DNA of 64,000 nucleotides from Eledone cirrhosa (taxonomy: Eukaryota): positions 17,174,001-17,238,000 of the forward strand of contig OZ024743.1 in NCBI GenBank assembly GCA_964016885.1, given 5' to 3'. The stretch's first letter is position 1, and each line of letters opens with the position of its first letter. The position numbers were made by a program, and so were the translations under genes. Below are positions 7,401-60,650 of this stretch, piece after piece. The notes beneath the pieces are model-generated. The model searched no databases, was not told the origin of the DNA, and worked only from the letters and a program-made list of their open reading frames with translations.

Positions 7401-7441
7401 CGATGAACTAGTTTCTAGCTTATTAGCTGTCATCAGCACCG
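7401..7441 (-). ncRNA. Type I hammerhead ribozyme, intact core
   Basis: CGGTG-CTGATGA-C-AGCT-AATA-AGCT-A-GAAA-CTAG-TT-CATCG; palindromic stem III ACTAGT; GUU site. Confidence 0.8.
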
Positions 7442-11387: not shown

Positions 11388-12480
11388 CTAGAGCGGGTAA
11401 AATTCCCGAGATCCATGACGAGTTCTGTCCAGCTGTCTCTGTCCGTCACCTTCGCCGCCGTTGCCCCGCGTCTCCAAGAGACATGTGTCTGCTCTTAGGG
11501 CGTCAACATATGTCAACCTCAGTCGTTCTGTTCTATTGTATTTGTGCAGTGGCTCCCATAGGAACACTGAGTGCAGTGTCAACTCTCAATGACGGTGACC
11601 ATGACCAGCTGACATCAGGCTTCTCTGCATTACTTTCGAACTCACTTTTGGGAGGCACCCGTATATGTCTGAGATCTTCATCCTCAAATTATACTGATTA
11701 ATGTTCAGAGCCATCCTCAGCACATGAGTGATTTGTTGGTCAGTGTCCAAGTGTCAGACCCGTACAGTAGCACAGAATCCACTGTAGCAATAAAGAGACG
11801 TATCTTCAGCTTTTTACGATGTCCGACCTCCACACCGATCTCAAACTGTGGCACGCTTCCAAGGATTTGCACTTCCTCTGAACTACATCCTCCTCTGTGT
11901 TCCCAATATTTGCTCCCAGATACAGGAAATCCTCAACCAATTCTAGTGGCTTCCCGCCTACATTCATAATCTTCTCTGTCTTCTTAATGTTCTCTTCCAG
12001 ATACTGCGTTGGAAATGGAAGACTACTGAGTGGCACCCTGCTGGGGGCGAACTTAACAGCAACCAACCTCGGGATTACTAAGTGTATGGGGAAAATGTAG
12101 ACTTGTATCTCTGATATTCCCCTGTCCATGTCCCATATTGATTTCATTCTGGTGTGGAAAAGCGGCGTAATAGTGTTCTGAACACAGAACCATACAACTA
12201 TTTTAGTACACTGGGCAGTAACCATCGCCTTGCTGTGAGTCAGTTCCGGGTGAGCGAAAGAAAGAGTAACGCTCAGCCCCAGAGAGCAATCAATGAGTGT
12301 GGAGATTTCAAAGAAGATGATAAGATACAGGTGAGGTATAGTAAAAGTGAAGAATAGGTAGAGTGTTCTCTGTAGAGGGGCAAAGGAGAGATAGATTGCA
12401 GGGACTGAGGAGAGCGTGAAGAGGGGATACTGGTACTTCACAAATGCAGTGCAGAAGTAAGTGCTCCTGAAAGATACATT
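11388..12480. mobile_element. RTE-type LINE remnant: 3' RT end on minus (11388-~12030) joined to an inverted APE fragment on plus (~12060-12480)
   Basis: Minus: GKPLELVEDFLYLGANI, LLYGSDTW, same 3' end as 55500-56781. Plus: HIDFILV..KRRNSVLNTEPYNYFSTLGSNHRL (APE C-terminus). Confidence 0.7.
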
Positions 12481-12539
12481 GGCCTGTAAAGCCCTCCAAA
12501 ATAGCAGTTTTAGCGAACCGATTAAATACATGCCCAACT

Positions 12540-14730: not shown

Positions 14731-14802
14731 GCCTCGTATGACGAACGAATGAAGACGTTTCTTTCGTATTCGCCTCATTCGGGAAACCTCTGGTAATGAG
14801 GT
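14731..14802 (+). ncRNA. Hammerhead-like motif with ATGACGA core (C3A), probably the pLTR of the 12.5 kb PLE
   Basis: GCCTCGT-ATGACGA-A-CGAATGA-(22 nt)-TCATTCG-G-GAAA-CC-TCT-GG-TA-ATGAGGT; 7-bp stems I and II. Confidence 0.65.
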
Positions 14803-19704: not shown

Positions 19705-19798
19705 AACATATCTGAGGAACTTACGATTGGAGAGTCAGTTTTGATCAATAACAGATCGTTCCTCGAGGTGATCGACAGCGAAACATATGTACTATTTT
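19705..19798 (+). ncRNA. Hammerhead-like motif with ~61-nt stem II, partly decayed stem I
   Basis: AACATAT-CTGAGGA-A-CT-TA-CGATT...GATCG-AC-AG-C-GAAA-CATATG-TA-CTATTTT. Confidence 0.55.
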
Positions 19799-23342: not shown

Positions 23343-23421
23343 CGAAGGAAATGTGGTAAGGAACCAGGTGGACCATAACGCACCAAAGTACTCAATACTT
23401 GAGGTAGTAGAGTGGGTAATA

Positions 23422-23533
23422 GGAACCAGTAAGACACCGACAGCTGAGCTCAAGCCGTTTCGACGGCTAATTCTGGACTAAATGAAAATTTATCCTGGTA
23501 TTTAAATAGCCGATCTTCTCAAGGGGTAATTCC
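23422..23533 (-). ncRNA. Hammerhead U3-A8 variant, left-arm copy (one stem I mismatch)
   Basis: Reverse complement of 25987-26098 with GGGGT changed to GGTGT. Confidence 0.7.
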
Positions 23534-25986
23534 ATATATGGTCAAAGTGATTGTCAAAAATCAGTAGTAATTCTGTGGTTGCAAATTAGTAGGGGAGATG
23601 GTGGCTAAACCTGCCAGTAGGAGAAAGAGGGGAGGGGGTGGAGTAGACCCAATCAAGCGTTGGTAGTGCCAGCTACAGCTGGGCATGAGGTCAAAGAAGA
23701 TACAGGGGAGGGGGAGGGGGAGGAAGTCGGAACGGTAGGTAGAACAATGGGGGGTAGAAATAGGAAAGAAAAAAAAAAAAAAAATACTGAGAGTGAAGAA
23801 AGGCAAATAAGTGTAAAGAAAAGTAAAGTAAATTAAATTCTACGACCTAGGTGTCAGGCTATTGTTAGGCGAGAATAAAATAAAGAAAGAAAGAAAGAAG
23901 TAAAAAAATAAATAAATGAATAAATAAGGAAATAAGTAAGAGAACTAGGTGGGACGGATAAGGCAAGGACCCTTTTAAGAGGTATAAGTACGTAAATGAT
24001 ACGGTGACGGGTCAACAAAAGGGGCCAAAATACTAAAGAGACTACCACGAAATAAACAATAAAGGTTTCCATCCCGGGCCAGCAACGACCCAGTGCAGCA
24101 AAGTGAACTTGTACGAGATAATAATTCTGAGTCCCGAGAAAAATATATACTAATGCTAACTCTAAAAGATCTAAAACAAGCTACATGAAAGTTCGTACGA
24201 AATAAAGGTAGAATACGGAGAAATAAATTCAGAATCCACCCCGCCCAGAAGAAGAGCGAAGCAAGAAATACTGAAACGAAAAAATAAGGCATGTGCCACT
24301 AAGAAATATAGAGGGCACAGAGAATAGTGGGAGCGGTCGGAAAAAGGGGGAAAGTATCCGGGGTCTAAGCCAGCTGCTATAAAGGGCGGAGTCCGCCAAA
24401 TCTATCAAAGACTAGGGGAGGGGGGGTGGGGGTACTAAGGCTACATGGGGCCAAAGGGCAGCCTCGGGTGGGCGAGAAAAGACGCCGACAAAGGAGAAGA
24501 GCTGGGGTAGAAGGACAAAGGGGAGAGGGGGGAAGGAAATAAAGGAAGCGATAAAAGAATACAAAGAAGATCTTACGTCTTCCTTGGCAAGCAGGGGTTA
24601 CCTATTGCAAAATCGGCAACTGGGGTGTTATAGCCCTAGTCTACCCCCCCGGGTCATTATGGGGTTTGAGGGCGAGGTAAGTCCTACGCAATCTATGTTT
24701 ACATGCAGTAACCAGTTCATCTTTCTTGTTTAGGAGTTGGTCCGTCGAAACAGCATTACAAATGCGCTGTTTTCGACGGACCAACTCCTAAACAAGAAAG
24801 ATGAACTGGTTACTGCATGTAAACATAGATTGCGTAGGACTTACCTCGCCCTCAAACCCCATAATGACCCGGGGGGGTAGACTAGGGCTATAACACCCCA
24901 GTTGCCGATTTTGCAATAGGTAACCCCTGCTTGCCAAGGAAGACGTAAGATCTTCTTTGTATTCTTTTATCGCTTCCTTTATTTCCTTCCCCCCTCTCCC
25001 CTTTGTCCTTCTACCCCAGCTCTTCTCCTTTGTCGGCGTCTTTTCTCGCCCACCCGAGGCTGCCCTTTGGCCCCATGTAGCCTTAGTACCCCCACCCCCC
25101 CTCCCCTAGTCTTTGATAGATTTGGCGGACTCCGCCCTTTATAGCAGCTGGCTTAGACCCCGGATACTTTCCCCCTTTTTCCGACCGCTCCCACTATTCT
25201 CTGTGCCCTCTATATTTCTTAGTGGCACATGCCTTATTTTTTCGTTTCAGTATTTCTTGCTTCGCTCTTCTTCTGGGCGGGGTGGATTCTGAATTTATTT
25301 CTCCGTATTCTACCTTTATTTCGTACGAACTTTCATGTAGCTTGTTTTAGATCTTTTAGAGTTAGCATTAGTATATATTTTTCTCGGGACTCAGAATTAT
25401 TATCTCGTACAAGTTCACTTTGCTGCACTGGGTCGTTGCTGGCCCGGGATGGAAACCTTTATTGTTTATTTCGTGGTAGTCTCTTTAGTATTTTGGCCCC
25501 TTTTGTTGACCCGTCACCGTATCATTTACGTACTTATACCTCTTAAAAGGGTCCTTGCCTTATCCGTCCCACCTAGTTCTCTTACTTATTTCCTTATTTA
25601 TTCATTTATTTATTTTTTTACTTCTTTCTTTCTTTCTTTATTTTATTCTCGCCTAACAATAGCCTGACACCTAGGTCGTAGAATTTAATTTACTTTACTT
25701 TTCTTTACACTTATTTGCCTTTCTTCACTCTCAGTATTTTTTTTTTTTTTTCTTTCCTATTTCTACCCCCCATTGTTCTACCTACCGTTCCGACTTCCTC
25801 CCCCCCCCCCTCCCCTGTATCTTCTTTGACCTCATGCCCAGCTGTAGCTGGCACTACCAACGCTTGATTGGGTCTACTCCACCCCCTCCCCTCTTTCTCC
25901 TACTGGCAGGTTTAGCCACCATCTCCCCTACTAATTTGCAACCACAGAATTACTACTGATTTTTGACAATCACTTTGACCATATAT

Positions 25987-26098
25987 GGAATTACCCCTTG
26001 AGAAGATCGGCTATTTAAATACCAGGATAAATTTTCATTTAGTCCAGAATTAGCCGTCGAAACGGCTTGAGCTCAGCTGTCGGGGTCTTACTGGTTCC
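25987..26098 (+). ncRNA. Type I hammerhead with U3-A8 compensatory core and extended stems
   Basis: GGAATT-ACCCC-TTGAGAA-GATCGGCTA-(37 nt)-TAGCCGTC-GAAA-CGGCT-TGAGCTC-AGCTG-TC-GGGGT-CTTACT-GGTTCC. Confidence 0.78.
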
Positions 26099-26112
26099 TA
26101 TATATATATACC

Positions 26113-28033: not shown

Positions 28034-28216
28034 GTAGTGGTAGACCACTAGAAGGCAATATCCATAGTGGTATAGCACCTCAGCCCTTGGGACGAGTTAG
28101 GTAGAAGTGGTTACACAACAGTTAGTTCGCCATACCGAGGACAATTGTTTCAACTTAGCGGATCCTCACCTCGTAATGGGCATGATTATAGGGATCTAAT
28201 TGTTGTGTAACCACTT

Positions 28217-28286: not shown

Positions 28287-30924
28287 AGGATGAATATAAA
28301 ATGAAAGTGCTTTTGTTAAAAAAGGAATTTATTAGGTATTGACATATGTTTCTGTAACAGACCGAATACCTATGTATCGCTGCTTGCGTAATCATATAAT
28401 GTTAGCAAGTATTCGAAAGCAAATGTATAATCAGTTGTCACTTCTTCAGAGATTTTGGATAAACTGGATAAAATCAGAAAAATTGAAGTATTTATATTAG
28501 TAAAAGAGGAAGGAACAGAGGGGATAGAATATGACAGATGGTAAAATAATTTACTGCTAGACAAGTATATAATGGGTTTTTAATGAGAATACCATGAGTA
28601 AATCTAAATAAGAATTTTGCGGGTGCCAATTTTAATCTCTACTTGACCAACTGGACAGTGGACAGGGCTGGTCATTTGGTGCAGTAGTATTAATTATAAA
28701 GTGTCAATTGGGGAAGGGGGAGATTTCGATTGCTACTAAATAACATCAAAGCTAGTAGCCAGCTGGTATATGCACTAGGGAATTGAATCAAGAAATCAGA
28801 AATCTCATTTTATCTATAGCAGTTTGTATTAAAAGGTAAATAATAGAAGAGTTGATAGAATTAAGACTAATAAAGAATGTTCATATCTATTTTGACAATC
28901 GAACGGGGATAGAGACAGGCCTTCAATCCTGGTAGTATTTATAATATGAAAATGTAGATTTTAGGCGATGGTTACAGTATAACGATCGCTCTATTCTGTT
29001 ATTCAATAAAATGTTTTTGGATTTCATAATACAAAATAATTCTACATTACATAATTTACAAAATTCCTGTCCATTGGATATGGGGGAGGCAGTCGCTATT
29101 ATATCCCATTTTAGGTGAAATTGTTGGTTATTTTCACGCAGCTGCCAAGCCTTGTCTGCGAGTGTTGTTACATAACGCTGGTTTTCATGTTTTATCGAAT
29201 AACGATGTCTATAAAGGCGTGATTTGAAGGAGGTGGCTGTAGATCCCACATAGTACCACTTCTGTCTATCCGATTCGATAGTACATTTGTATACGATGTT
29301 GCGTTCAAGACACTGATTGTTCAACGGACACATTCCTGGTTGGATACAGTTACAATTACAATTTTGCGTTGTTGTATTGCCATGGATGGGTTGATGAGGT
29401 TGCTTATGTAGGACAGGATGTTGTTTGTTGTTTTGTGATGTTATAGCTAATGTTTTACGTGTATTGTTATGTGTTGGAAGGCGTTTATACAACCGTTTTG
29501 CGTTAAGCTTTTTTATATGTTGTTCAATATTAGGGGCGGTTGAATATGAAAGTCGAATGGTGTTAGGGTTTAAGATTTTATTATATTTATGTGATGTTGG
29601 AAAGTGTTTTCTAACTAATCGAAAGAAATTTGAGGGTAGATTGGTTTTAATAGATTTGTTATAGACCGGGTTGTACCAGATATACTCCTTACATCGCCTT
29701 CTGTTTGGTGGTGTGCGACTATTGTTGTGTCTATTGCGGTAGTGTATGTATGGTGGTGATTCTGTGCTATTTCTACTCATATGTGATTTATTTTGGGTGT
29801 TTTGGTGTTCATTGACTATATACTCTATATTATCTAGGTGACCGGCTTTTCTAAGTGCATCATCATAATACTCGGCACGTTCTTTGAAGGTTTGTTAGTT
29901 GGACGATAGGCGGGAGATTCTAAGAGAAACATTTCCAGGGATGGATTTAATTATAGAGAGTGGATGGTTAGAACTCGTATTTACATATTTAAGGTTCTCA
30001 TTTAGTTTATGGAACGGTTTAATCGTATCTGTATTGAGATTGAAAGTAACATCAAGGAAATTGACCTCTTTGAGGTTATATTCAAATGTAATATTTAATC
30101 CTAGTTCTTTAAAAAGTTTTCTGATATTTTTACGCATCCTTTCTAAATTCTGGTTATTCATATGCTTAACTAATAGGAGCGCATCGTCACGGTAAATTCC
30201 GCCGTGGGATCCTTGAATGTTCCTTGTAATCTGTGGGTGATATAAATTCCCACAAGATCTGTTACTTCCACCGAATCATTAGAACCCATAGTGATATCAA
30301 AATTAGAAGGTCTATCTATGCGAACCCAGTAGCTATCATCGAATTTAACTATAGTTTTTCTCGCTTCCATAATAATTTTAATTTCAGCATCCGTAAGGTC
30401 GGAATTATCCTTAGCGAACGAAAGAGCTTCATGTAGAGTATCAGGTGAAATTGAGGAATAATATTCATCAATATCAAACTGAATAAATTTTGATTTTTTC
30501 TTATCAGTAATGTTGTTAAACCATCTTATTGCTTCATGGGTGTTACCCCATAGTCTAACCTCTACTTTAACCTTAACTTGGGGGATAATTCTGTCTAGTA
30601 TATATTTGCTAATTTTACCTATATCAGATTTAGTGGGGCATATAAGTCTAATATTAGGGTTAGTATCGAAGTTTACCTTGTGGTCCTTCAGGTTGAAGGA
30701 TGGTATAGCTGGTGTTAAGGGTTGCGTTCTATCGTCAATACAAAGTTTTTTAACAATATCACATGCCGAGTTGTTGATGTTTTTAAGTGTGGCTTCATTA
30801 GTTTTCCTGTATTTTTTATGCAATTCCTTACGGATGAAGTTATTGTAAGTGTCCACATCCATGGTATATACGTTTGATGTTTTGTCTGCTCTAACAATAA
30901 TTCCATTGGCGTTTTTTAGATTAT
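28282..30924 (-). mobile_element. 5'-truncated degenerate PLE, paralogous family of the 46-55 kb element
   Basis: VRADKTSN, QFDIDEYYSSIS, ITMGSNDS, YRDD, IWYNPVY, NIVYKC...YYVG; stop at ~29895, frameshift at ~30200; pLTR with HHR. Confidence 0.9.
28333..28450 (-). ncRNA. Hammerhead-like motif with 88-nt stem II
   Basis: CTGAAGA-A-GTGACA...TAGGTATT-CGGTC-TGTTAC-A-GAAA-CATATG-TC-AATACCTA-ATAAA. Canonical stem I is only 1 bp. Confidence 0.65.
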
Positions 30925-31023
30925 AAATAAATTTGAGATAGAGCGCCCGTGATGTTTGCTCTAAATTCTCTCTCTCTATATATACATATATCTATCTATA
31001 TATATATATATACATATATGTCT

Positions 31024-37094: not shown

Positions 37095-37135
37095 TTCTCA
37101 CCTGAAGAAGGGCTTATGCCCGAAACTTCGTCCCA
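37095..37135 (+). ncRNA. Minimal hammerhead-like core in a solitary pLTR fragment; stem I not evident
   Basis: CTGAAGA-A-GGGC-TTAT-GCCC-GAAA-CTTCG-TC; AATAAA ~35 nt downstream; (TA)n flanks. Confidence 0.5.
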
Positions 37136-38956: not shown

Positions 38957-40012
38957 AAGATTTACATATATATATAAAGTCATAGATATATATATGTTTT
39001 GCAACCGGTCACGTTGTGGCTCAATGATAAATTAATAATTTAAATAAAATAATCAGAGCTATATATCATAAAATATGTCTTTAGTATCACTACATATAAT
39101 ATATACCATTACCTCTCCCAATTAGTATAATTAACCATATAAAAAATCAATTAGACCAAGCTATAAGAAATCTCCGACAAATAACCGAAAGCAGCCCCTT
39201 CGCGGTGGCTACAATAGATTATTTATCTAACATTTCGTCAGCTTGTAAAAATCGACCAGATATACAGTCAACTAAACACAATTAGGTGTAAAATTGAACT
39301 TAGAAGAATTGTGTACATACCTAATTACCTCTTCCATGGTTTCATCCGTATTTTAAGACATCCGATAACAAGAAATTCCAGAGCTTCGGAATCATCAGTT
39401 GCGAGCTCAAAATAAGACATTTAATTTTCCAAAGTGATCGCGCCAAAAATACATTCAAAAATAGTTAAGAATCGTGTCGTGGCAGCGGTCAAGTTAGAAA
39501 GGATGTGATTAGTTGCTTACGCAAGCAGGCTTATTGCTAGAAAGCGCAGCCTAATACCGCCAAATTGTATCTCAACCTAACGGGAGATTAGTACATATAA
39601 AGATTTACATATATATATAAAGTCATAGATATATATGTGTTTTGCAACCGGTCACGTTGTGGCTCAATGAGAAATTAATAAATTAAATAAAATAATCAGA
39701 GCTATATATCATAAAATTTGTCTTTGGAATCACTAGATATAATATACACCATTTCCTTTTCAAATAGTATAATTAACCATATAAAAAAATCAATTAGGCC
39801 AAGCTATAAGAATAAAGGCTCCTATGAAGAAATCTCCAACAAATAACCGAAAGCAGCCCCTGTTATTGCAGCCCCGGTTATTTGTCGGAGATTTCTTCAT
39901 AGGAGCCTTTATTCTTATAGCTTGATCTAATTATTTTTTTATATGGTTAATTATACTAATTGGGAGAGGAAATGGTATATATTATATCTAGTGAATCTAA
40001 AGACATATTTTA

Positions 40013-40964: not shown

Positions 40965-43900
40965 GCAATAATAATAATAACGACAACAACAATAATAATA
41001 TAAATATTCATATATATATACACACACACGCACGCACATAAGCATATCTACACACACACACACACGATAGCAACTAACAGTGCTGCGATCGAATGTGGAT
41101 TTTTAGCCCAGCCAATGATATAAATGTCTTGCACAGAGTCGGCAACCAAAACATCCACTGGGAATAGTCGGCTGTGGTTGGAGTTCGTGTACTTTTGCAT
41201 GTCGCTTGAGCCCTCCTGCTGATTTACATTCTCTACCACATGTTTGGCAAGCATGATGAGTAGCATCTCCAACAGCAGCCTGGTAGTCAACCACTGGTCT
41301 TACTTTATGACTGCGAAGATGACTTTCGAGTCCAGCTTTGCTTAGGCAGAGTCTCGCACAGACGCTGCATGTCAGCACCATAGGAGGACCCTCGCCGTCT
41401 GGAAGTACAACAGCAATGCCCTTCCTCACATCCCGCTTTACTTTCTCGTGTGCGATTCGAGATGCCTCAAAGGCAACTTTTCCCTAATATACAGTCTTTC
41501 TCCATTTATTACGATCAGCAGCAATATTTTCCCATGTATCAGCAGAGATGTTAGCGTCTTTCAGAGAGGCTTTCAAGGAATCCTTATACCTCTTTTTTGG
41601 TTATGTGTCGGTCGTTTTCGTTTAACCAACTCTCCATAGAAGAGTTGTTTTGGTATTCTAGAATCCTTCATCCTTGCAAGGTGACCACTCGAACGGAGTC
41701 GTTGCTTTTGAGCACAAGAGCTTCTATACTGTCACACATAGAGCTTTCCAAAATCTCGACATCAATGATGTGGTCCCTCCAGTGAACGCCATGGATCCGT
41801 CTGAGACACATCTGATGGAAACGCTCCAATTGCTTAAGGTGGCGTCGATATGTGACCCAGGTCTCGCAGGCATAAAGAAGACAAGAGAGTACACATGCCC
41901 TGTACACCTTTACCTTTGTCCTCCTGCATATGTCTCGCCGACCCCAGAGTCGCCTTTCTAGCTTTCCGAAAGCATCACTTGCTTTCCTAATCCTAAGTGA
42001 GATTTCACTGTCAAGGTTGCCGTATCGATTGACAGTGCTTCCCAGGTAGACAAACTGATCAACCACTCCAAGTCGTTTGCCATACACATAGATGTTTGGT
42101 TCAGTGTACTGCTTACTAGGGGCAGGTTGGTACATGACGACGGTTTTCTTGAGACTGACAGTCAAACCCAGGGCAGTGCAAGCGTCAGAAAATGCATTCA
42201 ATATGTGGTGCATATCACTCTCTGTGTGCGCTACAAGATCGCAATCCTCTGCATACAAGAGGTCTCTTATGATTGATGTAAATACTTTTGTCTTCGCAGC
42301 AAAGCGCCTGATGTTAAATATGCTGCCTGAGGTTCGATATCAGATGTAAACACCATGCTCGCAATTCCTGAATGCAATACATAAAACCATTGCAAAGTAT
42401 ATGGCAAACAGAGTCGGTGCTGGAATATCCCCGTTTCACTCCATTTTTTACTGAGATAGGCTCCGACATGTTACCTCCGACATTAACCCAAGCCTTCATG
42501 TCGCCATGGAAAGACCTAACTAAAGCAAGGAACTTATCAGGGCAACCAATTTTCTGGAGAACCTTCCATAATGCATCTCTGTTGACAGTATCGAAAGTCT
42601 TTGTCAGATCGACAAAAACCTGATACAGATCCAAGCCTTGTTCAATGCACTTCTCCTGGAGCTGTCTAGCTGAGAAGATCATATCAGTAGTGCCACGTCC
42701 AGTACGAAAACCAGATTGACTTTCAGGAAGAACACAATTTGCAATGTGTGTCAGCAGACGGTCCAGAAGCACCCTACATAAAACTTTCCCTACGACAGAA
42801 AACAATGATATACCTCTGTAGTTCCCACAATCATTCCTGTTGCCCTTTCCCTTGTACAAGACCACCATTACTGCATCTCTCCAGTCCTCAGGCACGGATT
42901 CATTAGCCCATATCCTTCCAAACAAAGAGTGAAGATGTTGCAGGAGTCTTTCACCACCATATTGTAGGAGCTCAGCATGTATGCCATCCATACCTGGAGA
43001 TCTTCCACTGTTCAGCTTCGAAATAGCCACTGCAACCTCCACAAGAGTCGGAGGTTCTGCGAGAGCTACTTTCACAGGACTCTCTGGAATGAGATCGAAG
43101 AAATCTTCACTGACGACAGACGGCTGATTCAAAAGATCATCAAAGTGCTCTCGCCACCTTCGTAGAATTCCCTGTGAGTCACGAAGAAGTTCTTTGCCAT
43201 CCTTGCTGCGAAGCGGTGTCACCAGAGAAGAAGACGGTCCATAAACCTCACGCAAGAGACTGTACAACAGCTTTGTGTTATTGGAATCAGACGCAGTTTG
43301 TATCTCACCAGCCTTCTCACTCCACCACTGATCCTTCATCTGAGAAAGACTCCGCCTAACACGTGATTTTACATCCCTGAGCTCCTCATGCAACGTATTC
43401 CTCTCCTGTGGTTTTGCCGTCAAGTAGCGTGACAGAGCACGCCTCTTATCAGCCAACAAGTCCTCTATATGTACATCATTCTCATTAAACCAGTCCTGAT
43501 GTTTTCTCTGCACCAATCCCAGAACACGCCTGCCTACATCATAAACCGACTTTTTAAGGGTCGGCCAATCCTCACCAAGATCTGCAGCCTGCATCTCTTC
43601 TTCCAATGTCCTCTTCACATTTTTATCCTTAAGACGAGCAGCATTCAATCATTTGGGCAGGGTAACTAACACCAGGAGCCCGGATTTTAGGTTTGGTGAT
43701 TAGTTTCACTTTTGCGCATACCAGGCGGTGGTCCGTCCAGCACTCAGCTCCACGAAGAACACGAACACACTGCACATCCTGTCTGTCAAGCATCCTGACT
43801 AGGACGTAGTCCAAAAGATGCCATTCCTTAGATGCAGGATGCATCCATGTGGTCTTGAATTTGTTCTTTTGTTGGAACATGGTGTTGGTAACACACAGAT

Positions 43901-45176
43901 CCAGCTCCTCACACATCTGCAGCAGGAGCATACCATTGCTGTTACACTTTCCCACCCCATGCCTTCTGATTACATTCCATGTGTTAAAATCCCTACCCAC
44001 TCTAGCATTAAAGTCGCCAAGCACGATGACTTTGTCTGCCTGAGGGATATTTCTTAGAACACCTTTCAAGGCATGGTAAAAGGACAGTTTTTCTTCATCG
44101 ACAGAATTCATAGTTGGAGCATACACACTCACCAGGGTAGCATATCTTCCCTTGTCCAGCGGAACTCTCATGGACATAAGACGCTCACTAATCCCTAATG
44201 GGAATTCTTCTAATTTATTCACAAGTACAGTCTTAACAGCAAATCCAACCCCAGCCTCTCTTCTGGTTCCTTCATCTCTTCCTTTCCAGAAGAATGTATA
44301 TTCTCCATAAAATTCCGTAAGATGACCATCTCCAGCTAACCTCGTCTCAGATAAAGCCACGATGTCAAGATCGTAACGTCGAAGCTCCTTTGCAACAAGA
44401 GCGGTCCTCCGTTCAGGACGCTCCAAAGAATCCCTGTCAAGCAGCGTCCGTACGTTCCAGCAGCCAAGACTAAATGCCCTGTTTGGCTCTATTACAATGG
44501 CACGATGACGAGCGGGCCCAGGCTGTGATAACTTGGGGCCCCTGCCCTTATTGCCAATGATCTTTTTTGTTCCAGAACCTAAATTGCCAATTATCTCTTT
44601 TACATTGTTCTGGAACATCATTGAATTGGAAAAAAAAAAAAAAAAAAGTAATAATAATAGTAATAATAATTGTTTCTACGTTTGGCACAAGGCCAGCAAT
44701 TACCCAGTGCATTACTGGTACTTTATTTTATCGACCCCGTAAGGATGAAAGGCAAAGTTAACCTCGACGGGATTTGAACTCAGATCGTAAAGGGACGTAA
44801 CTATGCTGGAAAGCATGGCGTCCGACCTTCTACCGATACTGCCAAATCACCGAATAATAATATTAATAATAGTACACTATTAATAATTATTAATGCACTC
44901 GTGCAATGCCTGTGCGTGACGAATATTTTTAAAGTGAGGAAAGACTGTGCACTGAGCCAATCCCACTCTCTGAGCGACAGTAGCTATAACCCGAAAAGAA
45001 GAAAAGATCAACATCATCGGTAACTACTGAGCCGCAGGTTTTATATCGAAGTTAACCCAGTTTCCTGAGATGCCTTCTCCTAGAAGAATGCCCTGACAAG
45101 GGCTAGGGGTTCTTAACTCCCAGTGGTTTAACTGCGCGATCGGGCATCCAGCCCGATTATTTCTATGTCCCCGCGC
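40692..45176 (-). mobile_element. Near full-length RTE (RTE-1/BovB-like) LINE, frameshifted; APE + RT + C-terminal C2H2 fingers
   Basis: WNVRTLLD..PERRTALVAKEL, SETRL, GDFNARVG, TDHRLV; NYRGISL, ESQSGFR, FVDLTKTFDTV, YAEDCDL, YLGS; CxxC..HxxxH fingers at 41100-41375. UTR limits are approximate. Confidence 0.9.
44665..44852 (-). mobile_element. tRNA-derived SINE inserted upstream of the RTE ORF
   Basis: A/B boxes and core as in 15910-16094; flanked by AATAATAATA(G/T)TAATAAT. Confidence 0.9.
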
Positions 45177-46435: not shown

Positions 46436-46538
<103 letters not shown>

Positions 46539-47221
46539 AAGTTAATTTGTATTCCAATGTTACTAAGTAGTTGCATTGGATGTAGTCAACTGACGTCAGA
46601 GATTGCTCAACGTATAATAAAGTGTGTTTTAAAATCCGGAGAAATTATGGAGAAAAAATTTACGAAATGGAAATGCGGGTATATAGAATTTATTATGTAA
46701 CAATTGTTTCTATAGTGTATGAGTTACCTATACCTCGCTACTTGAATAATACACAAATATTATCAAAAACCGAAAGTACACTGTAAGCCAACACACCATG
46801 TCGTCAGACCTTTGTATTAGAATGATATGAAAATATTTTATACACTAGATAAAAGATAAAGAAGGAGGTAGGAAGAAAAGGGGAAGAGGGAAGTGAGTAA
46901 GGTGGAGGGAGTCTTAGGGTTTAAGACTGTCAGACTAGTAGAGATTGTGAAGAGAGAATGTTTTGGCAGCAGTTAGCTAAATGAGGCGTGCTAAGGGTGG
47001 CTGGGAAGTAGATTCTTCTAGTGGTGTTGTTCGGACAAAATTTAGTTAGAGGGGTCAAAGTAGTACAGTGTCACAGACAAGTTATTAGGGCTATTATAGT
47101 AGCAGGTTATTTCTAAAGGGGTCCAGAAAAACAGTGTTTAGTACTATTATTATAGAAAGCCATATCTAGTGTATAAACATATAAGACAGAAATTTGCAAA
47201 CGTTGGTGTAAAAAGGTAACA

Positions 47222-49504
47222 TTATATGCATTTAAAAAAAGAAAAAGTCGTTTTCAAACGATGGTTACAATATAGAGAACGTTCAATTTTGCTGTTCAAA
47301 AGTTTGTTTACCGACGTTAAAATGCAGTATATCTCTAAATTGCATAACTTGCAGAATCGATGATTTTGCTGATATGCAGGCGCAGCTGCAATAATTTGCC
47401 AATCAAGGGAGAACGCTTGATTGTTCCTCCGAAGCTGCCAGGCTTTATCAGCGAGGGTTGTTACGGAGCGCATTTTCTCGTGCCTGATCGAAGATCGATG
47501 TTGGTATAGGCGAGCCTTGAAAGAAGTTGCGGTACATCCGACGTAATACCATTTGTTGGTCCCGGAATTTATTGTACACCGGTAGACAATATTGCGTGCT
47601 AGGCACTGGTTATTCAGTCGGCACGTACCTGGTTTGGTGCAGTTACAACTATTTTTATGTTTTGCAGTAGAATCCTGGATAGTTTGGTGGGGTTGTGGTT
47701 GCGTGTTAGTGCGTTGTATGTTGCTATGCTGGTGCGCTGAGTCATTAGGGATGTACTTATTCAGTATTGCTGAGTTGAGTTTTCTAATTAGTTGTTCTAT
47801 GTTAGGTGCAGTGGAGTATGAGAGTCTAATGGTGCGCGAGTTAAAGATTTTATAGTATTTATGTGAAGTTGTAAAGTGTTTATTGATTAGTGTATAGAAT
47901 TGTGAGATAATCTTAGTGCTAATAGAAGAATTGTACACGGGGTTATACCATATGTACTCTCTACGTCTGACTCTATTTGCTGGTTTGCACCTGTTAGTAT
48001 GCCTATTGATGTGTGTGTGTGGTGCAATACTAGTTCGACTTAGATGTGTTTTATTCATAGTACTTATGTGGTTATCGTCTAGATATTCAATTTTCTCGCA
48101 GTAACCAGCTTTTCTAAGTGCGTCATTATAATATTCAGCATGCTCGTTGAAGGTCTGCAAATTAGACGACAGTCGGGAGATCCTTATGGATATATTTTTA
48201 GGGATAGATTTAATAATGGGATGAGGATGGTTCGATTTTACATTAACGTACTTAAGATTTTCATTAAGTTTGTGAAATGGCTCTATATTACCGTTATTAA
48301 GGTTGAAGGTGACATCCAAGAAGTTGACCACCTTTAGATTGTGTTCAAAGGTAATATTAAGCCCTAGTTCTAAGAAAAGTTTCCTAATGTTTTTACGTCG
48401 CCTTTCTAGGTTTTGTTTGTTCATATTCTTGACTAATAGAAGTGTATCGTCGCGGTATATTCCGCCGTGGAGGTCCGTAAATTCGCTCTGGAGTCTATGG
48501 GCTATATAGATCCCAACCAAATCGGTGACCTCCGCCGAATCATTAGAACCCATCGTAATGTCGAATTCCGCGGGTCTATCCCTGCGGACCCAATAACTAT
48601 TTTCAAAGTGCACTACTGTGCGTCTAGCTTCAAGTATAATATTAATTTCCTCGTTTGTGAGGTCCGAGTTAGTCCTAGCGAAAGAGAGGGCCTTATGCGG
48701 GGTTTCAGGTGAAATAGAGGAATAGTATTCATCTATATCGAATTGAATAAAAGAAGATTTGTTTTTGTCCCTAATGTTATTGAACCATCTTATTGACTGA
48801 TGAGTATTACCCCATAATTTAATATCTACCTTAGCCTTAACTTGGGGGATAATACGATCTAATATGTACTTACTAATCCTACCTATATCGGACTTTGAAG
48901 GACATATTAATCTAATTTTAGGGTTAGTATCGAAGTTATCCTTATGGTCCTTCAGATTAAAAGTCGGTGTAGCTGGGGATAGGGGTACTGTTCTGTCGTC
49001 AATTTTCAGTTTCCTAACAATATCACATGCTGCGTTATTAATGTTGGTTAGTGTAGTTGCGTTTGTTTTTTTGTACTTCCTATGTAATTCCTTACGTATA
49101 AAATTGTTATATGTTTCTACATCCAGGGTGTATAGATTCGAAGTTTTGTCTGCCTTTATGATAATTCCTTTGGTATTCCTTAGGTTGTTGAGTAGAGTTT
49201 TAATATCTCGTTGCAGTTCGTTTTTCCTTCCGTTTGTAAATTTGATTCCGGTTATCATTTTCATTAAGTCCTGTTCGAAAGAATCCAAAAGAGGGTTAGA
49301 GGGTGGGTTTTTGTAGGAGTTGAAACCAAACTTCTCGTTGTTGGTGTCCGAAGTTTGTGTAATTCTTTTCCTATCGAAGTGGAAGGCCTTCCATCTAATC
49401 CGCCGAATAAATTCGTTGGTCCTTTGTATCATACCAAGAATGTAATCCTTTTTACCCTGAATTGGTATGTTTTTTAAGGACATACCACAATGATGTTTCT
49501 CCAT
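47222..49504 (-). CDS. Penelope-like reverse transcriptase / GIY-YIG endonuclease, 760 aa, uninterrupted
   Basis: SLKNIP N-terminus, KADKT, QFDIDEYYSSI, ITMGSNDS, GIYRDD, NFLDVTF, WYNP, CNC..GTCRL..QC, NIVY...YYVG, CKLC, CNH. Confidence 0.93.
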   Translation of the reverse strand: MEKHHCGMSLKNIPIQGKKDYILGMIQRTNEFIRRIRWKAFHFDRKRITQTSDTNNEKFGFNSYKNPPSNPLLDSFEQDLMKMITGIKFTNGRKNELQRDIKTLLNNLRNTKGIIIKADKTSNLYTLDVETYNNFIRKELHRKYKKTNATTLTNINNAACDIVRKLKIDDRTVPLSPATPTFNLKDHKDNFDTNPKIRLICPSKSDIGRISKYILDRIIPQVKAKVDIKLWGNTHQSIRWFNNIRDKNKSSFIQFDIDEYYSSISPETPHKALSFARTNSDLTNEEINIILEARRTVVHFENSYWVRRDRPAEFDITMGSNDSAEVTDLVGIYIAHRLQSEFTDLHGGIYRDDTLLLVKNMNKQNLERRRKNIRKLFLELGLNITFEHNLKVVNFLDVTFNLNNGNIEPFHKLNENLKYVNVKSNHPHPIIKSIPKNISIRISRLSSNLQTFNEHAEYYNDALRKAGYCEKIEYLDDNHISTMNKTHLSRTSIAPHTHINRHTNRCKPANRVRRREYIWYNPVYNSSISTKIISQFYTLINKHFTTSHKYYKIFNSRTIRLSYSTAPNIEQLIRKLNSAILNKYIPNDSAHQHSNIQRTNTQPQPHQTIQDSTAKHKNSCNCTKPGTCRLNNQCLARNIVYRCTINSGTNKWYYVGCTATSFKARLYQHRSSIRHEKMRSVTTLADKAWQLRRNNQAFSLDWQIIAAAPAYQQNHRFCKLCNLEIYCILTSVNKLLNSKIERSLYCNHRLKTTFSFFKCI

Positions 49505-49711
49505 TTCAAAGACGCGGGTTGATAGGTTGCTCGACTGTAAAGGAGTGTGAAGAATTAGTTAATTTGTATTCCAATGTTACTAAGTAGTTGCATTGGATGT
49601 ATTCAACTGACGTCAGAGATTGCTCAACGTATAATAAAGTGTGTTTTAAAATCCGGAGAAAATATGAAGAAAAAATTTACGAAATGGAAATGCGGGTATA
49701 TAGAATTTATT

Positions 49712-49828
49712 AGGTAACAATTGTTTCTATAGTGTATGAGTTACCTACACCTCGCTACTTGAATAATACACAAATATTATCAAAAACCGAAAGTACACTG
49801 TAAGCCAACACACCATGTCGTCAGACCT
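49712..49828 (-). ncRNA. pLTR hammerhead with 88-nt stem II, intact core
   Basis: Reverse complement of 54870-54986. The copies at 46695-46811 (stem I ACCT to ACAT) and 51853-51969 (core CTGATGG) are mutated. Confidence 0.72.
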
Positions 49829-50238
49829 TTGTATTAGAATGATATGAAAATATTTTATACACTAGATAAAAGATAAAGAAGGAGGTAGGAAGAAAAGGGG
49901 AAGAGGGAAGTGAGTAAGGTGGAGGGAGTCTTAGGGTTTAAGACTGTCAGACTAGTAGAGATTGTGAAGAGAGAATGTTTTGGCAGCAGTTAGCTTAATG
50001 AGGCGTGCTAAGGTTGGCTGGGAAGTAGATTCTTCTAGTGGTGTTGTTCGGACAAAATTTAGTTAGAGGGGTCAAAGTAGTACAGTGTCACAGACAAGTT
50101 ATTAGGGCTATTATAGTAGCAGGTTATTTCTAAAGGGGTCCAGAAAAACAGTGTTTAGTACTATTATTATAGAAAGCCATATCTAGTGTATAAACATATA
50201 AGACAGAAATTTGCAAACGTTGGTGTAAAAAGGTAACA

Positions 50239-51306
50239 TTATATGCATTTAAAAAAAGAAAAAGTCGTTTTCAAACGATGGTTACAATATAGAGAACGTT
50301 CAATTTTGCTGTTCAAAAGTTTGTTTACCGACGTTAAAATGCAGTATATCTCTAAATTGCATAACTTGCAGAATCGATGATTTTGCTGATATGCAGGCGC
50401 AGCTGCAATAATTTGCCAATCAAGGGAGAACGCTTGATTGTTCCTCCGAAGCTGCCAGGCTTTATCAGCGAGGGTTGTTACGGAGCGCATTTTCTCGTGC
50501 CTGATCGAAGATCGATGTTGGTATAGGCGAGCCTTGAAAGAAGTTGCGGTACATCCGACGTAATGCCATTTGTTGGTCCTGGAATTTATTGTACACCGGT
50601 AGACAATATTGCGTGCTAGGCACTGGTTATTCAGTCGGCACGTACCTGGTTTGGTGCAGTTACAACTATTTTTATGTTTTGCAGTAGAATCCTGGATAGT
50701 TTGGTGGGGTTGTGGTTGCGTGTTAGTGCGTTGTATGTTGCTATGCTGGTGCGCTGAGTCATTAGGGATGTACTTATTCAGTATTGCTGAGTTGAGTTTT
50801 CTAATTAGTTGTTCTATGTTAGGTGCAGTGGAGTATGAGAGTCTAATGGTGCGCGAGTTAAAGATTTTATAGTATTTATGTGAAGTTGTAAAGTGTTTAT
50901 TGATTAGTGAATAGAATTGTGAGATAATCTTAGTGCTAATAGAAGAATTGTACACGGGGTTATACCATATGTACTCTCTACGTCTGACTCTATTTGCTGG
51001 TTTGCACCTGTTAGTATGCCTATTGATGTGTGTGTGTGGTGCAATACTAGTTCGACTTAGATGTGTTTTATTCATAGTACTTATGTGGTTATCGTCTAGA
51101 TATTCAATTTTCTCGCAGTAACCAGCTTTTCTAAGTGCGTCATTATAATATTCAGCATGCTCGTTGAAGGTCTGCAAATTAGACGACAGTCGGGAGATCC
51201 TTATGGATATATTTTTAAGGATAGATTTAATAATGGAATGAGGATGGTTCGATTTTACATTAACGTACTTAAGATTTTCATTAAGTTTGTGAAATGGCTC
51301 TATATT
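50239..51306 (-). pseudogene. 5'-truncated second copy of the PLE ORF (thumb + endonuclease)
   Basis: Matches 47222-48289 and ends at the inversion junction. Confidence 0.9.
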
Positions 51307-52176
51307 ATTCTGCAAGTTATGCAATTTAGAGATATACTGCATTTTAACGTCGGTAAACAAACTTTTGAACAGCAAAATTGAACGTTCTCTATATTGTAAC
51401 CATCGTTTGAAAACGACTTTTTCTTTTTTTAAATGCATATAATGTTACCTTTTTACACCAACGTTTGCAAATTTCTGTCTTATATGTTTATACACTAGAT
51501 ATGGCTTTCTATAATAATAGTACTAAACACTGTTTTTCTGGACCCCTTTAGAAATAACCTGCTACTATAATAGCCCTAATAACTTGTCTGTGACACTGTA
51601 CTACTTTGACCCCTCTAACTAAATTTTGTCCGAACAACACCACTAGAAGAATCTACTTCCCAGCCAACCTTAGCACGCCTCATTAAGCTAACTGCTGCCA
51701 AAACATTCTCTCTTCACAATCTCTACTTGTCTGACAGTCTTAAAGCCTAAGACTCCCTCCACCTTACTCACTTCCCTCTTCCCCTTTTCTTCCTACCTCC
51801 TTCTTTATCTTTTATCTAGTGTATAAAATATTTTCATATCATTCTAATACAAAGGTCTGATGGCATGTTGTGTTGGCTTACAGTGTACTTTCGGTTTTTG
51901 ATAATATTTGTGTATTATTCAAGTAGCGAGGTATAGGTAACTCATACACTATAGAAACAATTGTTACCTAATAAATTCTATATACCCGCATTTCCATTTC
52001 GTAAATTTTTTCTCCATATTTTCTCCGGATTTTAAAACACACTTTATTATACGTTGAGCAATCTCTGACGTCAGTTGACTACATCCAATGCAACTACTTA
52101 GTAACATTGGAATACAAATTAACTAATTCTTCACACTCCTTTACAGTCGAGCAACCTATCAACCCGCGTCTTTGAA

Positions 52177-54461
52177 ATGGAAAAACATCATTGTGGTATG
52201 TCCTTAAAAAACATACCAATTCAGGGTAAAAAGGATTACATTCTTGGTATGATACAAAGGACCAACGAATTTATTCGGCGGATTAGATGGCAGGCCTTCC
52301 ACTTCGATAGGAAAAGAATTACACAAACTTCGGACACCAACAACGAGAAGTTTGGTTTCAACTCCTACAAAAACCCACCCTCTAACCCTCTTTTGGATTC
52401 TTTCGAACAGGACTTAATGAAAATGATAACCGGAATCAAATTTACAAACGGAAGGAAAAACGAACTGCAACGAGATATTAAAACTCTACTCAACAACCTA
52501 AGGAATACCAAAGGAATTATCATAAAGGCAGACAAAACTTCGAATCTATACACCCTGGATGTAGAAACATATAGCAATTTTATACGTAAGGAATTACATA
52601 GGAAGTACAAAAAAACAAACGCAACTACACTAACCAACATTAATAACGCAGCATGTGATATTAGGAAACTGAAATTTGACGACAGAACAGTACCCCTATC
52701 CCCAGCTACACCGACTTTTAATCTGAAGGACCATAAGGATAACTTCGATACTAACCCTAAAATTAGATTAATATGTCCTTCAAAGTCCGATATAGGTAGG
52801 ATTAGTAAGTACATATTAGATCGTATTATCCCCCAAGTTAAGGCTAAGGTAGATATTAAATTATGGTGTAATACTCATCAGTCAATAAGATGGTTCAATA
52901 ACATTAGGGACAAAAACAAATCTTCTTTTATTCAATTCGATATAGATGAATACTATTCCTCTATTTCACCTGAAACCCCGCATAAGGCCCTCTCTTTCGC
53001 TAGGACTAACTCGGACCTCACAAACGAGGAAATTAATATTATACTTGAAGCTAGACGCACAGTAGTGCACTTTGAAAATAGTTATTGTGTCCGCAGGGAT
53101 AGACCCTCGGAATTCGACATTACGATGGGTTCTAATGATTCGGCGGAGGTCACGGATTTGGTTGGGATCTATATAGCCCATAGACTCCAGAGCGAATTTA
53201 CGGACCTCCACGGCGGAATATACCGCGACGATACACTTCTATTAGTCAAGAATATGAACAAACAAAACCTAGAAAGGCGACGTAAAAACATTAGGAAACT
53301 TTTCTTAGAACTAGGGCTTAATATTACCTTTGAACACAATCTAAAGGTGGTCAACTTCTTGGATGTCACCTTCAACCTTAATAACGGTAATATAAAAAAG
53401 AGCCATTTCACAAACTTAATGAAAATCTTAAGTACGTTAATGTAAAATCGAACCATCCTCATCCCATTATTAAATCTATCCCTAAAAATATATCCATAAG
53501 GATCTCCCGACTGTCGTCTAATTTGCAGACCTTCAACGAGCATGCTGAATATTATAATGACGCACTTAGAAAAGCTGGTTACTGCGAGAAAATTGAATAT
53601 CTAGACGATAACCACATAAGTACTATGAATAAAACACATCTAAGTCGAACTAGTATTGCACCACACACACACATCAATAGGCATACTAACAGGTGCAAAC
53701 CAGCAAATAGAGTCAGACGTAGAGAGTACATATGGTATAACCCCGTGTACAATTCTTCTATTAGCACTAAGATTATCTCACAATTCTATACACTAATCAA
53801 TAAACACTTTACAACTTCACATAGATACTATAAAATCTTTAACTCGCGCACCATTAGACTCTCATACTCCACTGCACCTAACATAGAACAACTAATTAGA
53901 AAACTCAACTCAGCAATACTGAATAAGTACACCCCTAATGACTCAGCGCACCAGCATAGCAACATACAACGCACTAACACGCAACCACAACCCCACCAAA
54001 CTATCCAGGATTCTACTGCAAAACATAAAAATAGTTGTAACTGCACCAAACCAGGTACGTGCCGACTGAATAACCAGTGCCTAGCACGCAATATTGTCTA
54101 CCGGTGTACAATAAATTCCGGGACCAACACATGGTATTACGTCGGATGTACCGCAACTTCTTTCAAGGCTCGCCTATACCAACATCGATCTTCGATCAGG
54201 CACGAGAAAATGCCCTCCGTAACAACCCTCGCTGATAAAGCCTGGCAGCTTCGGAGGAACAATCAAGCGTTCTCCCTTGATTGGCAAATTATTGCAGCTG
54301 CGCCTGCATATCAGCAAAATCATCGATTCTGCAAGTTATGCAATTTAGAGATATACTGCATTTTAACGTCGGTAAACAAACTTTTGAACAGCAAAATTGA
54401 ACGTTCTCTATATTGTAACCATCGTTTGAAAACGACTTTTTCTTTTTTTAAATGCATATAA
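52177..54461 (+). pseudogene. Full-length PLE ORF copy with a frameshift at the A-run near 53395
   Basis: AATATAGAGCC became AATATAAAAAAGAGCC (+5 nt); one codon deleted near 52660; ORF split into 422 + 312 aa. Confidence 0.9.
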
Positions 54462-54869
54462 TGTTACCTTTTTACACCAACGTTTGCAAATTTCTGTCAT
54501 ATGTTTATACACTAGATATGGCTTTCTATAATAATAGTACTAAACACTGTTTTTCTGGACCCCTTTAGAAATAACCTGCTACTATAATAGCCCTAATAAC
54601 TTGTCTGTGACACTGTACTACTTTAACCCCTCTAACTAAATTTTGTTCGAACAACACCACTAGAAGAATCTACTTCCCAGCCAACCTTAGCACGCCTCAT
54701 TAAGCTAACTGCTGCCAAAACATTCTCTCTTCACAATCTCTACTAGTCTGACAGTCTTAAACCCTAAGACTCCCTCCACCTTACTCACTTCCCTCTTCCC
54801 CTTTTCTTCCTACCTCCTTCTTTATCTTTTATCTAGTGTATAAAATATTTTCATATCATTCTAATACAA

Positions 54870-54986
54870 AGGTCTGACGACATGGTGTGTTGGCTTACAG
54901 TGTACTTTCGGTTTTTGATAATATTTGTGTATTATTCAAGTAGCGAGGTATAGGTAACTCATACACTATAGAAACAATTGTTACCT
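54870..54986 (+). ncRNA. pLTR hammerhead with 88-nt stem II, intact core
   Basis: AGGT-CTGACGA-C-ATGGTGTGT-(70 nt hairpin)-ATACACTAT-A-GAAA-CAATTG-TT-ACCT-AATAAA. Confidence 0.75.
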
Positions 54987-55023
54987 AATAAATTCTATAT
55001 ACCCGCATTTCCATTTCGTAAAT

Positions 55024-55166
<143 letters not shown>

Positions 55167-59663: not shown

Positions 59664-60650
59664 TCCAGTAGGTATTACGTACCCACGGAAATATATATGG
59701 TGTCTATAATAGTGGTTGTTCTGTGGTACTAATATGAGATACCAGAACTGTAAATATGAGCGGAACAAGTAAGCATTAAACAATCTTTTAAATAAATTAA
59801 AATACGATTTAAATATTTACCTCTTCTGTTGCTATGACCGACGGTTTCGCTTATCAAAAGATTGGAAATTCAGAGAATGTCCAATGGAAAGATATAGCAT
59901 TTCAGATAGCTTTTCCAAACTTAGTAGATATAAATCCAAGTAAGTAGATATATCGCTTTCTGCCCTGTGAATGAATCAAGCCATTAAAATAACCCACACA
60001 CAAATAGACCGTAAGAAAAGCGGGAACTATAGACTCATTGATATTTCATATTACTAGAAATAGCGGCAAGATACACCCTTTTTTTCTCAACATTAAGGAG
60101 ATTACAGATAAATGATATAGATATTCCAGTAGGTATTAAGTACCCACGGAAATATATATGGTGTCTATAATAGTGGTTGTTCTGTGGTACTAATTTGAGA
60201 TACCAGAACTGTAAATATGAGCGGAACAAGTAAGCATTAAAAGATCTTTTAAATAAATTAAAATACGATTTAAATATTTACCTCTTCTATTACCATGACC
60301 GACAGTTTCACTTATTAAAAGATTGGAAAATCAGAGAATTTCCAATGGAGAGATATAGCTCTTCAGATAGCTTTCCCAAACTTACTAGATATAAATACAA
60401 GTAAGTAGATGGGTCATTTTAACGGCTTGATTATTTCACCGGGCAGGAAGCGATACATCTACTTACTTGGATTTATATCTAGTAAGTTTGGAAAAGCTAT
60501 CTGAAGTGCTATATCTTTCCATTGGAAATTCTCCGAATGTCCAATCTTTTGATAAGCGAAACCGTCGGTCATGGCAATAGAAGAGGTAAATATTTAAATC
60601 GTATTTTAATTTATTTAAAAGATTGCTTGATGTTTACTTGTTCCACTCAT
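59660..60650. mobile_element. Retrozyme-like element: 461-bp unit in partial tandem + fold-back, three HHR motifs
   Basis: HHRs at 59831-59910 (-), 60292-60371 (-, intact CTGAAGA) and 60496-60575 (+): GCTAT-CTGAAGA-GCT..AGC-GAAA-CCGTCGG-TC-ATGGC. Confidence 0.8.

Follow-up and report, generated by a model that had tools for sequence, protein, structure and literature searches.

Penelope-like retroelements (PLEs) are known to carry hammerhead ribozymes. The minimal hammerheads described from metazoan PLEs (Cervera and de la Pena, 2014; PMC4209133) are of type I, with the hammerhead core, a palindromic stem III, an extra base after position 9, a short stem I and a helix II of 7-8 bp closed by a small loop. 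They lie in the terminal repeats of elements encoding a reverse transcriptase (RT) and a GIY-YIG endonuclease, and occur in thousands of copies and many families. PLE hammerheads cut poorly in vitro and one requires the protein of its element; Frangieh (2024; PMC11167929) reported a PLE hammerhead that is cut only with the PLE protein, the uncut RNA being the template for insertion. In the pseudoknotted hammerheads (Perreault et al., 2011; PMC3088659), a stem of 1 bp can be supported by base pairs that a loop forms with the adjacent tail, an interaction backed by mutation and rescue.

We analysed a window of 64,000 nt from Eledone cirrhosa (contig OZ024743.1, positions 17,174,001 to 17,238,000), which is microsatellite-rich and part of a 3.0-Gb animal genome, and in which a motif scan found 12 hammerhead-like candidates. 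At three loci the initial annotation had proposed that the strand following the cut has a second partner inside stem II, forming a switch or a pseudoknot. These loci, labelled family A (28.4 kb), family B (54.9 kb) and family N (14.7 kb), are predicted type-I minimal hammerheads in the terminal repeats (3' ends) of Hydra-clade PLEs. The reading we favour, at a probability of roughly 60%, is that the proposed internal partner is one side of a covarying loop in a long stem II arm of these Hydra-clade terminal-repeat hammerheads, likely a binding site for the element's own RT-endonuclease. The relevant features are as follows.

28341..28449, minus strand: family A hammerhead, predicted type-I minimal; stem II of 90 nt, stem I of 1 bp
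28443-28449, minus strand: family A core, CTGAAGA
28341-28352, minus strand: family A GAAAC-ATAT-GTC, with the predicted cut between 28341 and 28340
28422..28426, minus strand: family A internal loop 1, 5' side (AC + ATT)
28368..28372, minus strand: family A internal loop 1, 3' side (TAG + GT), which begins the proposed internal partner TAGGTATT (28365-28372)
28411..28415, minus strand: family A internal loop 2, 5' side (CG + AAT)
28378..28382, minus strand: family A internal loop 2, 3' side (CAG + CG)
28333..28340, minus strand: family A post-cleavage strand AATACCTA, the alternative partner of 28365-28372
28328..28333, minus strand: family A AATAAA, 7 nt past the cut site; the element ends 44 nt beyond, at a (TA)n run
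28923..29894, minus strand: family A GIY-YIG endonuclease half of the ORF (CxCx5C linker, CxxC, CxH)
30170..30991, minus strand: family A reverse-transcriptase fragment with the DKT motif, a broken copy
54870..54992, plus strand: family B hammerhead; stem I AGGT/ACCT, core 54874-54880, cut after 54982, AATAAA at 54987
54897 (ACAGT) and 54951 (TAGGT), plus strand: family B loop 1; 54909 (CGGTT) and 54941 (TAGCG), plus strand: family B loop 2
46699..49824, minus strand: family B unit; 778-aa RT and GIY-YIG frame at 47222-49558, flanked by two hammerheads
49716-49824 and 46699-46807, minus strand: hammerheads of the family B unit; the inverted/tandem insertion spans 46534-55030
14731..14802, plus strand: family N hammerhead; stem II of 38 nt, without twin loops and without AATAAA; this copy has A in place of core C3
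16663..16779, plus strand: family G hammerhead of the long-arm group, not named in the initial annotation; stem I of 7 bp, twin loops

The window copies of A and B have the conserved core (CUGANGA ... GAAA ... UH) in type I order, a short palindromic stem III (ACATATGT in A, ACAATTGT in B) and an unpaired base between position 9 and stem II. They resemble the hammerheads of PMC4209133 in these traits and in their short stem I, their place in the terminal repeats of an RT and GIY-YIG element, and their many families and thousands of copies. Helix I, which is 4-5 bp in the definition of PLE minimal hammerheads, has 4 bp in B, 5 bp in a further family, J, and 1 bp in A. The place of the described helix II is taken here by an arm of 77-97 nt with two conserved loops; the G10.1-C11.1 pair of the described hammerheads is not kept in B, which opens with A-U, and the portions of PMC4209133 considered here make no mention of an AATAAA beside the cut. 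We therefore class the putative A and B hammerheads as a variant, not as the typical PLE minimal hammerhead.

In the encoded proteins, a motif check placed RWK at 55 and DKT at 137 of the RT of B and identified DKT in A, and the CxCx5C linker, the CxxC and CxH motifs near the end and the C-terminal GIY-YIG domain are present in A, B and N. The same RWK, DKT, CxCx5C, CxxC, CxH and C-terminal endonuclease occur in Hydra-clade PLEs (Craig et al., 2021; PMC8557442), which are also alike in (TA)n targets, a short ORF and inverted or tandem insertions. The A, B and N proteins fit this definition, and copies of the elements terminate in (TA)n; the Hydra-clade label rests on these protein motifs and (TA)n targets. 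A Neptune label was dropped, as its CX2-5CxxC linker is unmatched in the A, B and N frames. A Pfam search of four frames gave nothing above the cutoff, and an Rfam scan (E up to 1) gave 121 matches that were nearly all simple repeats, with no hammerhead and no credible family. Among the 26 Hydra rows of File S2 of PMC8557442, stems II have 3-7 bp and loops 3-10 nt, and none has the long arm; the descriptor used there may exclude long arms. In the literature searched, no report of a long twin-loop arm or of AATAAA adjacency was found, though long-stem variants may already be described elsewhere.

The long-arm group has 8,504 pattern matches in this genome, compared with 19 for the reversed control, and the evidence on the arm, the pairing and the copy ends comes from this one genome. 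From the matches to this pattern, which combines a long stem II hammerhead with a following AATAAA, 79 distinct sequences were extracted, 49 of which were aligned with MAFFT (alignment A1) after omission of near-duplicates and of four unrelated or chance rows (L118, L119, L163, L165); the family I row is misaligned in A1 and was re-read separately. The stem II region carries two A-N-U/Y-A-G internal loops, and the TAGGT of the proposed internal partner is the 3' side of loop 1, where TAGRY lies opposite RYANT. Judged from covariation, the arm very probably consists, in order, of a proximal helix, loop 1 (RY-ANU / UAG-RY), a middle helix of 6-7 bp, loop 2 (YG-RNU / YAG-C) and a tip hairpin that varies. 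The core and loop 1 are 12-21 nt apart, with loop 2 farther out.

Within the arm, the loop bases are fixed while the paired bases change together. Over the 49 rows, the loop 1 bases are A in 49, T in 48, T in 48, A in 47 and G in 48. The two pairs closing loop 1 are formed in 93.9% of 98 cells with 27 changes on both sides, a level reached by none of 500 shuffles, and slid controls reach at most 52%. When arms were permuted over 12 family groups, the middle helix kept 39 of 48 pairs, compared with 27.4 for permuted arms, and the closing pairs 24 of 24, compared with 18.8 (p at most 0.0001). All 13 hand-picked intact lineage representatives match the twin-loop pattern once each, with four types of closing pair (AC/GT, GC/GC, GT/AC and AT/AT); the absence of the pattern from 26,000 shuffles is partly built in, because the pattern was drawn from the same sequences. 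Family J, which was found from the 3' side alone, carries the predicted 5' side AC-ATT. Among 156 cells there are 14 G-U and 4 A-C oppositions, which favours the sense RNA as the pairing strand. RNAalifold gave no consensus structure on A1 owing to register shifts in the alignment, and folds of single sequences often leave out the loops or the proximal helix, so that covariation is what supports the structure. In other long-arm families the arm has other shapes without the twin loops, which are thus not required by all long-arm elements, and a metagenome scan returned 47 matches, three of them with an upstream core and none of this architecture. On these data, the real feature at A and B is a conserved twin-loop arm, as predicted from covarying sequence, added to a known pairing of ribozyme and retroelement.

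The alternative pairings themselves were confirmed as stretches of complementarity. At 28.4 kb, TAGGTATT on the minus strand is exactly complementary to AATACCTA, and the canonical stem I is 1 bp; at 54.9 kb, TAGGTAAC (54951-54958) complements GTTACCTA (54980-54987) over 8 bp, one more than proposed, in rivalry with the 4-bp AGGT/ACCT stem I; and at 14.7 kb, ATGAGGT (14796) can pair with GCCTCGT (14731) or with GCCTCAT (14772). These amount to 8 Watson-Crick pairs in A, 8 in B with the GUU triplet included, and 7 plus a G-U in N. Against dinucleotide-shuffled stems II, the match at each locus has p=0.009 (A), 0.034 (B) and 0.011 (N, for the 7-bp run). Eight Watson-Crick pairs are reached in 3 of 22 family representatives, with 0.32 expected, the third being an unrelated AT-rich family (p=0.11). 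The window copy of family G, whose loop 1 is AAG, has no 8-bp alternative.

The three loci had been described as three families with different sequences, which does not apply to A and B: they are homologous, with endonucleases 58-59% identical, and share TAGGTA and TACCTAATAAATTC, so that one inherited event lies behind 6 of their 8 pairs. At the last two pairs, A has changed relative to B on both strands in a way that keeps the pairing (TT/AA and AC/GT). An endonuclease tree of 25 rows, drawn from copies in this genome and including three rows that are probably neighbouring unrelated elements, does not settle the branching order of A, B, C, D and E/F, a sister relation of A and B included. 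The post-cleavage strand is the partner in A as proposed; the B helix cannot be assigned to that strand alone because it includes the GUU cleavage triplet. As for the contact with AATAAA, the helix covers only its first A, and the 14.7 kb locus has no AATAAA.

Family N (3,144 matches) presents a separate case. The C3-to-A core change of its window copy is private (1 of 34 rows), and the family itself keeps C3. Its alternative partner is the 3' strand of the proximal stem II, as the stem II 5' strand resembles the tail. The alternative is strong only within one subfamily: among 34 rows, the 11 that carry GCCTCAT give it a modelled probability of 0.11-0.71, and the remaining 23 at most 0.02. As modelled, it is a mutually exclusive misfold and involves no pseudoknot.

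Across relatives, the complementarity is restricted to A and B. In A1, where B rows are off register, the proposed helix is paired in 41.0% of 356 cells compared with 42.9% after shuffling; the anticipated covariation of the internal segment with the 3' strand is thus not observed, and the covarying partner lies instead inside stem II. Given the register problem of B, the pairing test was repeated free of register. At the TAG site, all 9 A/B rows have an 8-nt match to the cleavage-site strand, in one case by way of a G-U, and the other 40 of 40 rows have 3-4 Watson-Crick pairs. When tails were exchanged among 18 groups, the whole stem II gave p=0.15, the TAG site p=0.0011, a value carried by the four A/B groups, and the stem I control p=0.0065. 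A 3'-side search for TAGGT families recovered family J (2,272 matches; 5 in the control), which keeps TAGGT and has lost the pairing partner, its tail opening directly with AATAAA. The first 100 of 2,965 ACCTAATAAA matches all belong to A or B, both TAGGTA families. Maintenance in other families, which the initial annotation had named as its own refutation test, therefore does not extend beyond 9 of 49 rows, all A/B. The conserved and covarying loop-tail helix by which pseudoknotted hammerheads are recognised is missing from the group, and family A shows no variation from which to judge it. A clade-wide switch or pseudoknot is not supported by these alignments; what stands of the bistable proposal is a predicted alternative fold in A and B lying no more than about 2 kcal/mol away from the ribozyme-compatible fold, its place as main predicted fold in the A majority subfamily, and the 1-bp stem I that A combines with an intact core.

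Two other ideas were rejected: a GTATT 5' motif as the partner of the tail, since the motif is fixed while stem I changes, and weakness of stem I as a predictor of alternative pairing, on the evidence of family I, which is no second case because stem I has 3-4 bp in two of its three readable copies. The extra pairing in A and B would most likely be a single inherited coincidence between the loop TAG-GT and the ACCT before AATAAA, each separately constrained, and would be dispensable for spread of the elements.

The closeness of the cut site to AATAAA, also pointed out in the initial annotation, is real and widespread. AATAAA occurs within 3-10 nt past the hammerhead 3' half at 28,491 places (123 in the control), and in 13 representatives the spacing from cut to AATAAA is 0-9 nt, with an ATTAAA variant in one subfamily. 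AATAAA presumably acts as a polyadenylation signal. Ends were read in 89 copies from families A, B, J and D that had been chosen for their intact 3' half: 53 stop 34-53 nt past AATAAA, 31 stop 149-184 nt past it, 5 continue farther, and poly(A) is present at none of the ends. Copies ending at the cut are rare, with 210 matches over all families, compared with 99 in the control; in family A there are none, and 6 end 4 nt later, against about 1,850 matches. Copy ends beyond both signals mean that the templates were neither cut nor ended at AATAAA, and this holds alike for families with and without the alternative helix. The two fixed ends downstream of AATAAA lie about 110-145 nt apart in A, B, J and D, and all four families have CTCCGGA after the short copy end and a CGTTGAG-like sequence farther on. 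The Poseidon element PAc of Anole (PMC11167929) likewise has two discrete copy ends past its hammerhead and an uncut template, there with a protein-assisted hammerhead; it belongs to another clade, and its ORF starts inside stem II, whereas the ORF starts about 200 nt past the cut site here.

In family J (L171:1432-1560, plus strand), AATAAA follows the cut immediately and provides the 3' strand of the 5-bp stem I, so that folding of the ribozyme would hide five of its six bases. By eye, AATAAA also overlaps the end of stem I in the Penelope-4_HM row of PMC8557442 File S2, where several sister rows have A-rich look-alikes.

The two similar loops, fixed while stem I varies, would most likely bind the protein of the element itself, in keeping with the protein-dependent PLE hammerhead and its uncut template; docking of this protein as the role of the arm has a little under an even chance when taken by itself. 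The palindromic stem III would make cutting depend on the meeting of two ribozymes, leaving single ribozymes off by default. Protein on both loops would then mark the RNA as template, and the loop-bound protein would govern cutting versus 3' processing. A structured stem II domain offers a mutable handle on how a telomerase-related enzyme chooses its RNA and on whether this enzyme controls the ribozyme. Since over 28,000 copies have AATAAA only 0-9 nt past the cut, the relation of cutting to 3' processing is directly testable, and a natural contrast is offered by family A, with its 1-bp stem I, and family J, whose stem I includes AATAAA itself.

The main rival for the role of the loops is that they make protein-free RNA-RNA contacts, docking stem I or a dimer partner and so speeding cleavage. 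Contacts that loop II makes with stem I activate natural hammerheads (PMC3088659, PMC4209133), stem III, as in dimer-cleaving motifs, is short and palindromic, and fixed loop bases would suit such docking. We regard it as unlikely, because the loops are far from the core, and stem I varies from 1 to 7 bp with free sequence and shows no conserved acceptor.

A second alternative concerns family A only (1,850 matches), in which the loop 1 strand and the 3' tail could pair as a pseudoknot, filling out the 1-bp stem I and turning the ribozyme on, in alternation with an inactive twin-loop rod. Family A would then mirror the natural hammerhead in which a 1-bp stem II is rescued by a 6-bp pseudoknot (Perreault et al., 2011), with the difference that the pairing here is predicted, is confined to two related families and competes with a conserved loop. 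Of the 16 A copies whose core was detected by the script, 15 have a 1-bp stem I; the upstream strand varies across subfamilies while the core and the GUC triplet are intact. Among the matches listed, TAGGTATT is unchanged in 100 of 100 family A copies and AATACCT in 94 of 100, and half of the 6 variants retain a G-U pair; that 15 positions do not vary means little, as only about four sites differ among the subfamilies, and this young family shows no covariation. Before a penalty for the pseudoknot is applied, its helices sum to -27 to -28 kcal/mol, compared with -21.5 for the rod, but a nested inactive fold using the same helix also lies below the rod in the majority subfamily (-23.4). The partner segment is 12 nt from the core, a stem I of 1 bp, a bulge and 2-3 bp is also possible, Penelope of Drosophila virilis is reported to have a helix I of 2 bp (PMC4209133), and the held-out TAGGT family J lost the tail. 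We consider a family A pseudoknot unlikely. Its extension to a two-state ribozyme is rather improbable; here a stem II strand would either close the protein-binding loop (off, template) or pseudoknot with the tail (on, AATAAA cut away), and the protein of the element would decide between copying and cutting.

Nor do we favour the bistable proposal in the form of an evolved off-switch, in which the alternative helix of A and B masks the cleavage site and lets full-length RNA persist. In both families the nested alternative and the core-free fold differ by at most 2.2 kcal/mol, and the alternative is the predicted main fold of the A majority subfamily (P=0.93), but P is 0.07 in the A subfamily of the window and 0.01-0.06 in B. 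The helix covers the GUU triplet in B, and the restriction of those first 100 ACCTAATAAA matches to A and B, together with the apparent 2-bp compensation, would fit such a switch. Against this, the helix is absent from the 40 of 40 non-A/B rows and from J, whose copies likewise derive from uncut RNA; similar competing folds arise at unrelated places in E1, E3 and N1; and the helix hides one base of AATAAA only. Such a switch is quite unlikely. Least probable is that the conserved letters act as DNA, in promoter or endonuclease recognition within a terminal repeat, with the RNA pairing incidental: PLE terminal repeats do carry promoters (PMC6765202), but the compensatory closing and middle pairs and the excess of G-U over A-C on the sense strand oppose this.

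Several further hammerhead-like elements were observed. L288, L306 and L296 form a separate long-arm lineage with, by eye, one A-N-T / TAG loop near the arm tip; in L299 and L305, stem II has a three-way junction with two hairpins; L090:1436 (plus strand) and L123:1686 (minus strand) have a stem II of 58-60 nt and an internal loop reading AGT / GAG, which may be a remote version of the motif; and the metagenome contigs L205, L213 and L238 carry a hammerhead-like motif that is unrelated and whose stem II is about 105 nt long. CCGANGA replaces the CTGANGA core in many families (L071, L114, L254 and others), often being the common one. In the window, a fourth family B hammerhead with an altered core lies at 51857-51965 (plus strand), and a short hammerhead of another element (28140-28169, minus strand; core C3 changed to G) sits beside the A insertion. 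Motifs of other families, several of them decayed, occur at 7406-7436 (minus), 19712-19791 (plus), 37102-37132 (plus), 39326-39398 (minus) and 60297-60366 (minus). Broken LINE-type elements with endonuclease and reverse-transcriptase frames are located at 41668-44675 and 11806-12537 (both minus strand), and a near-perfect inverted repeat with arms of about 1.3 kb and a 20-nt spacer occupies 23419-26101.
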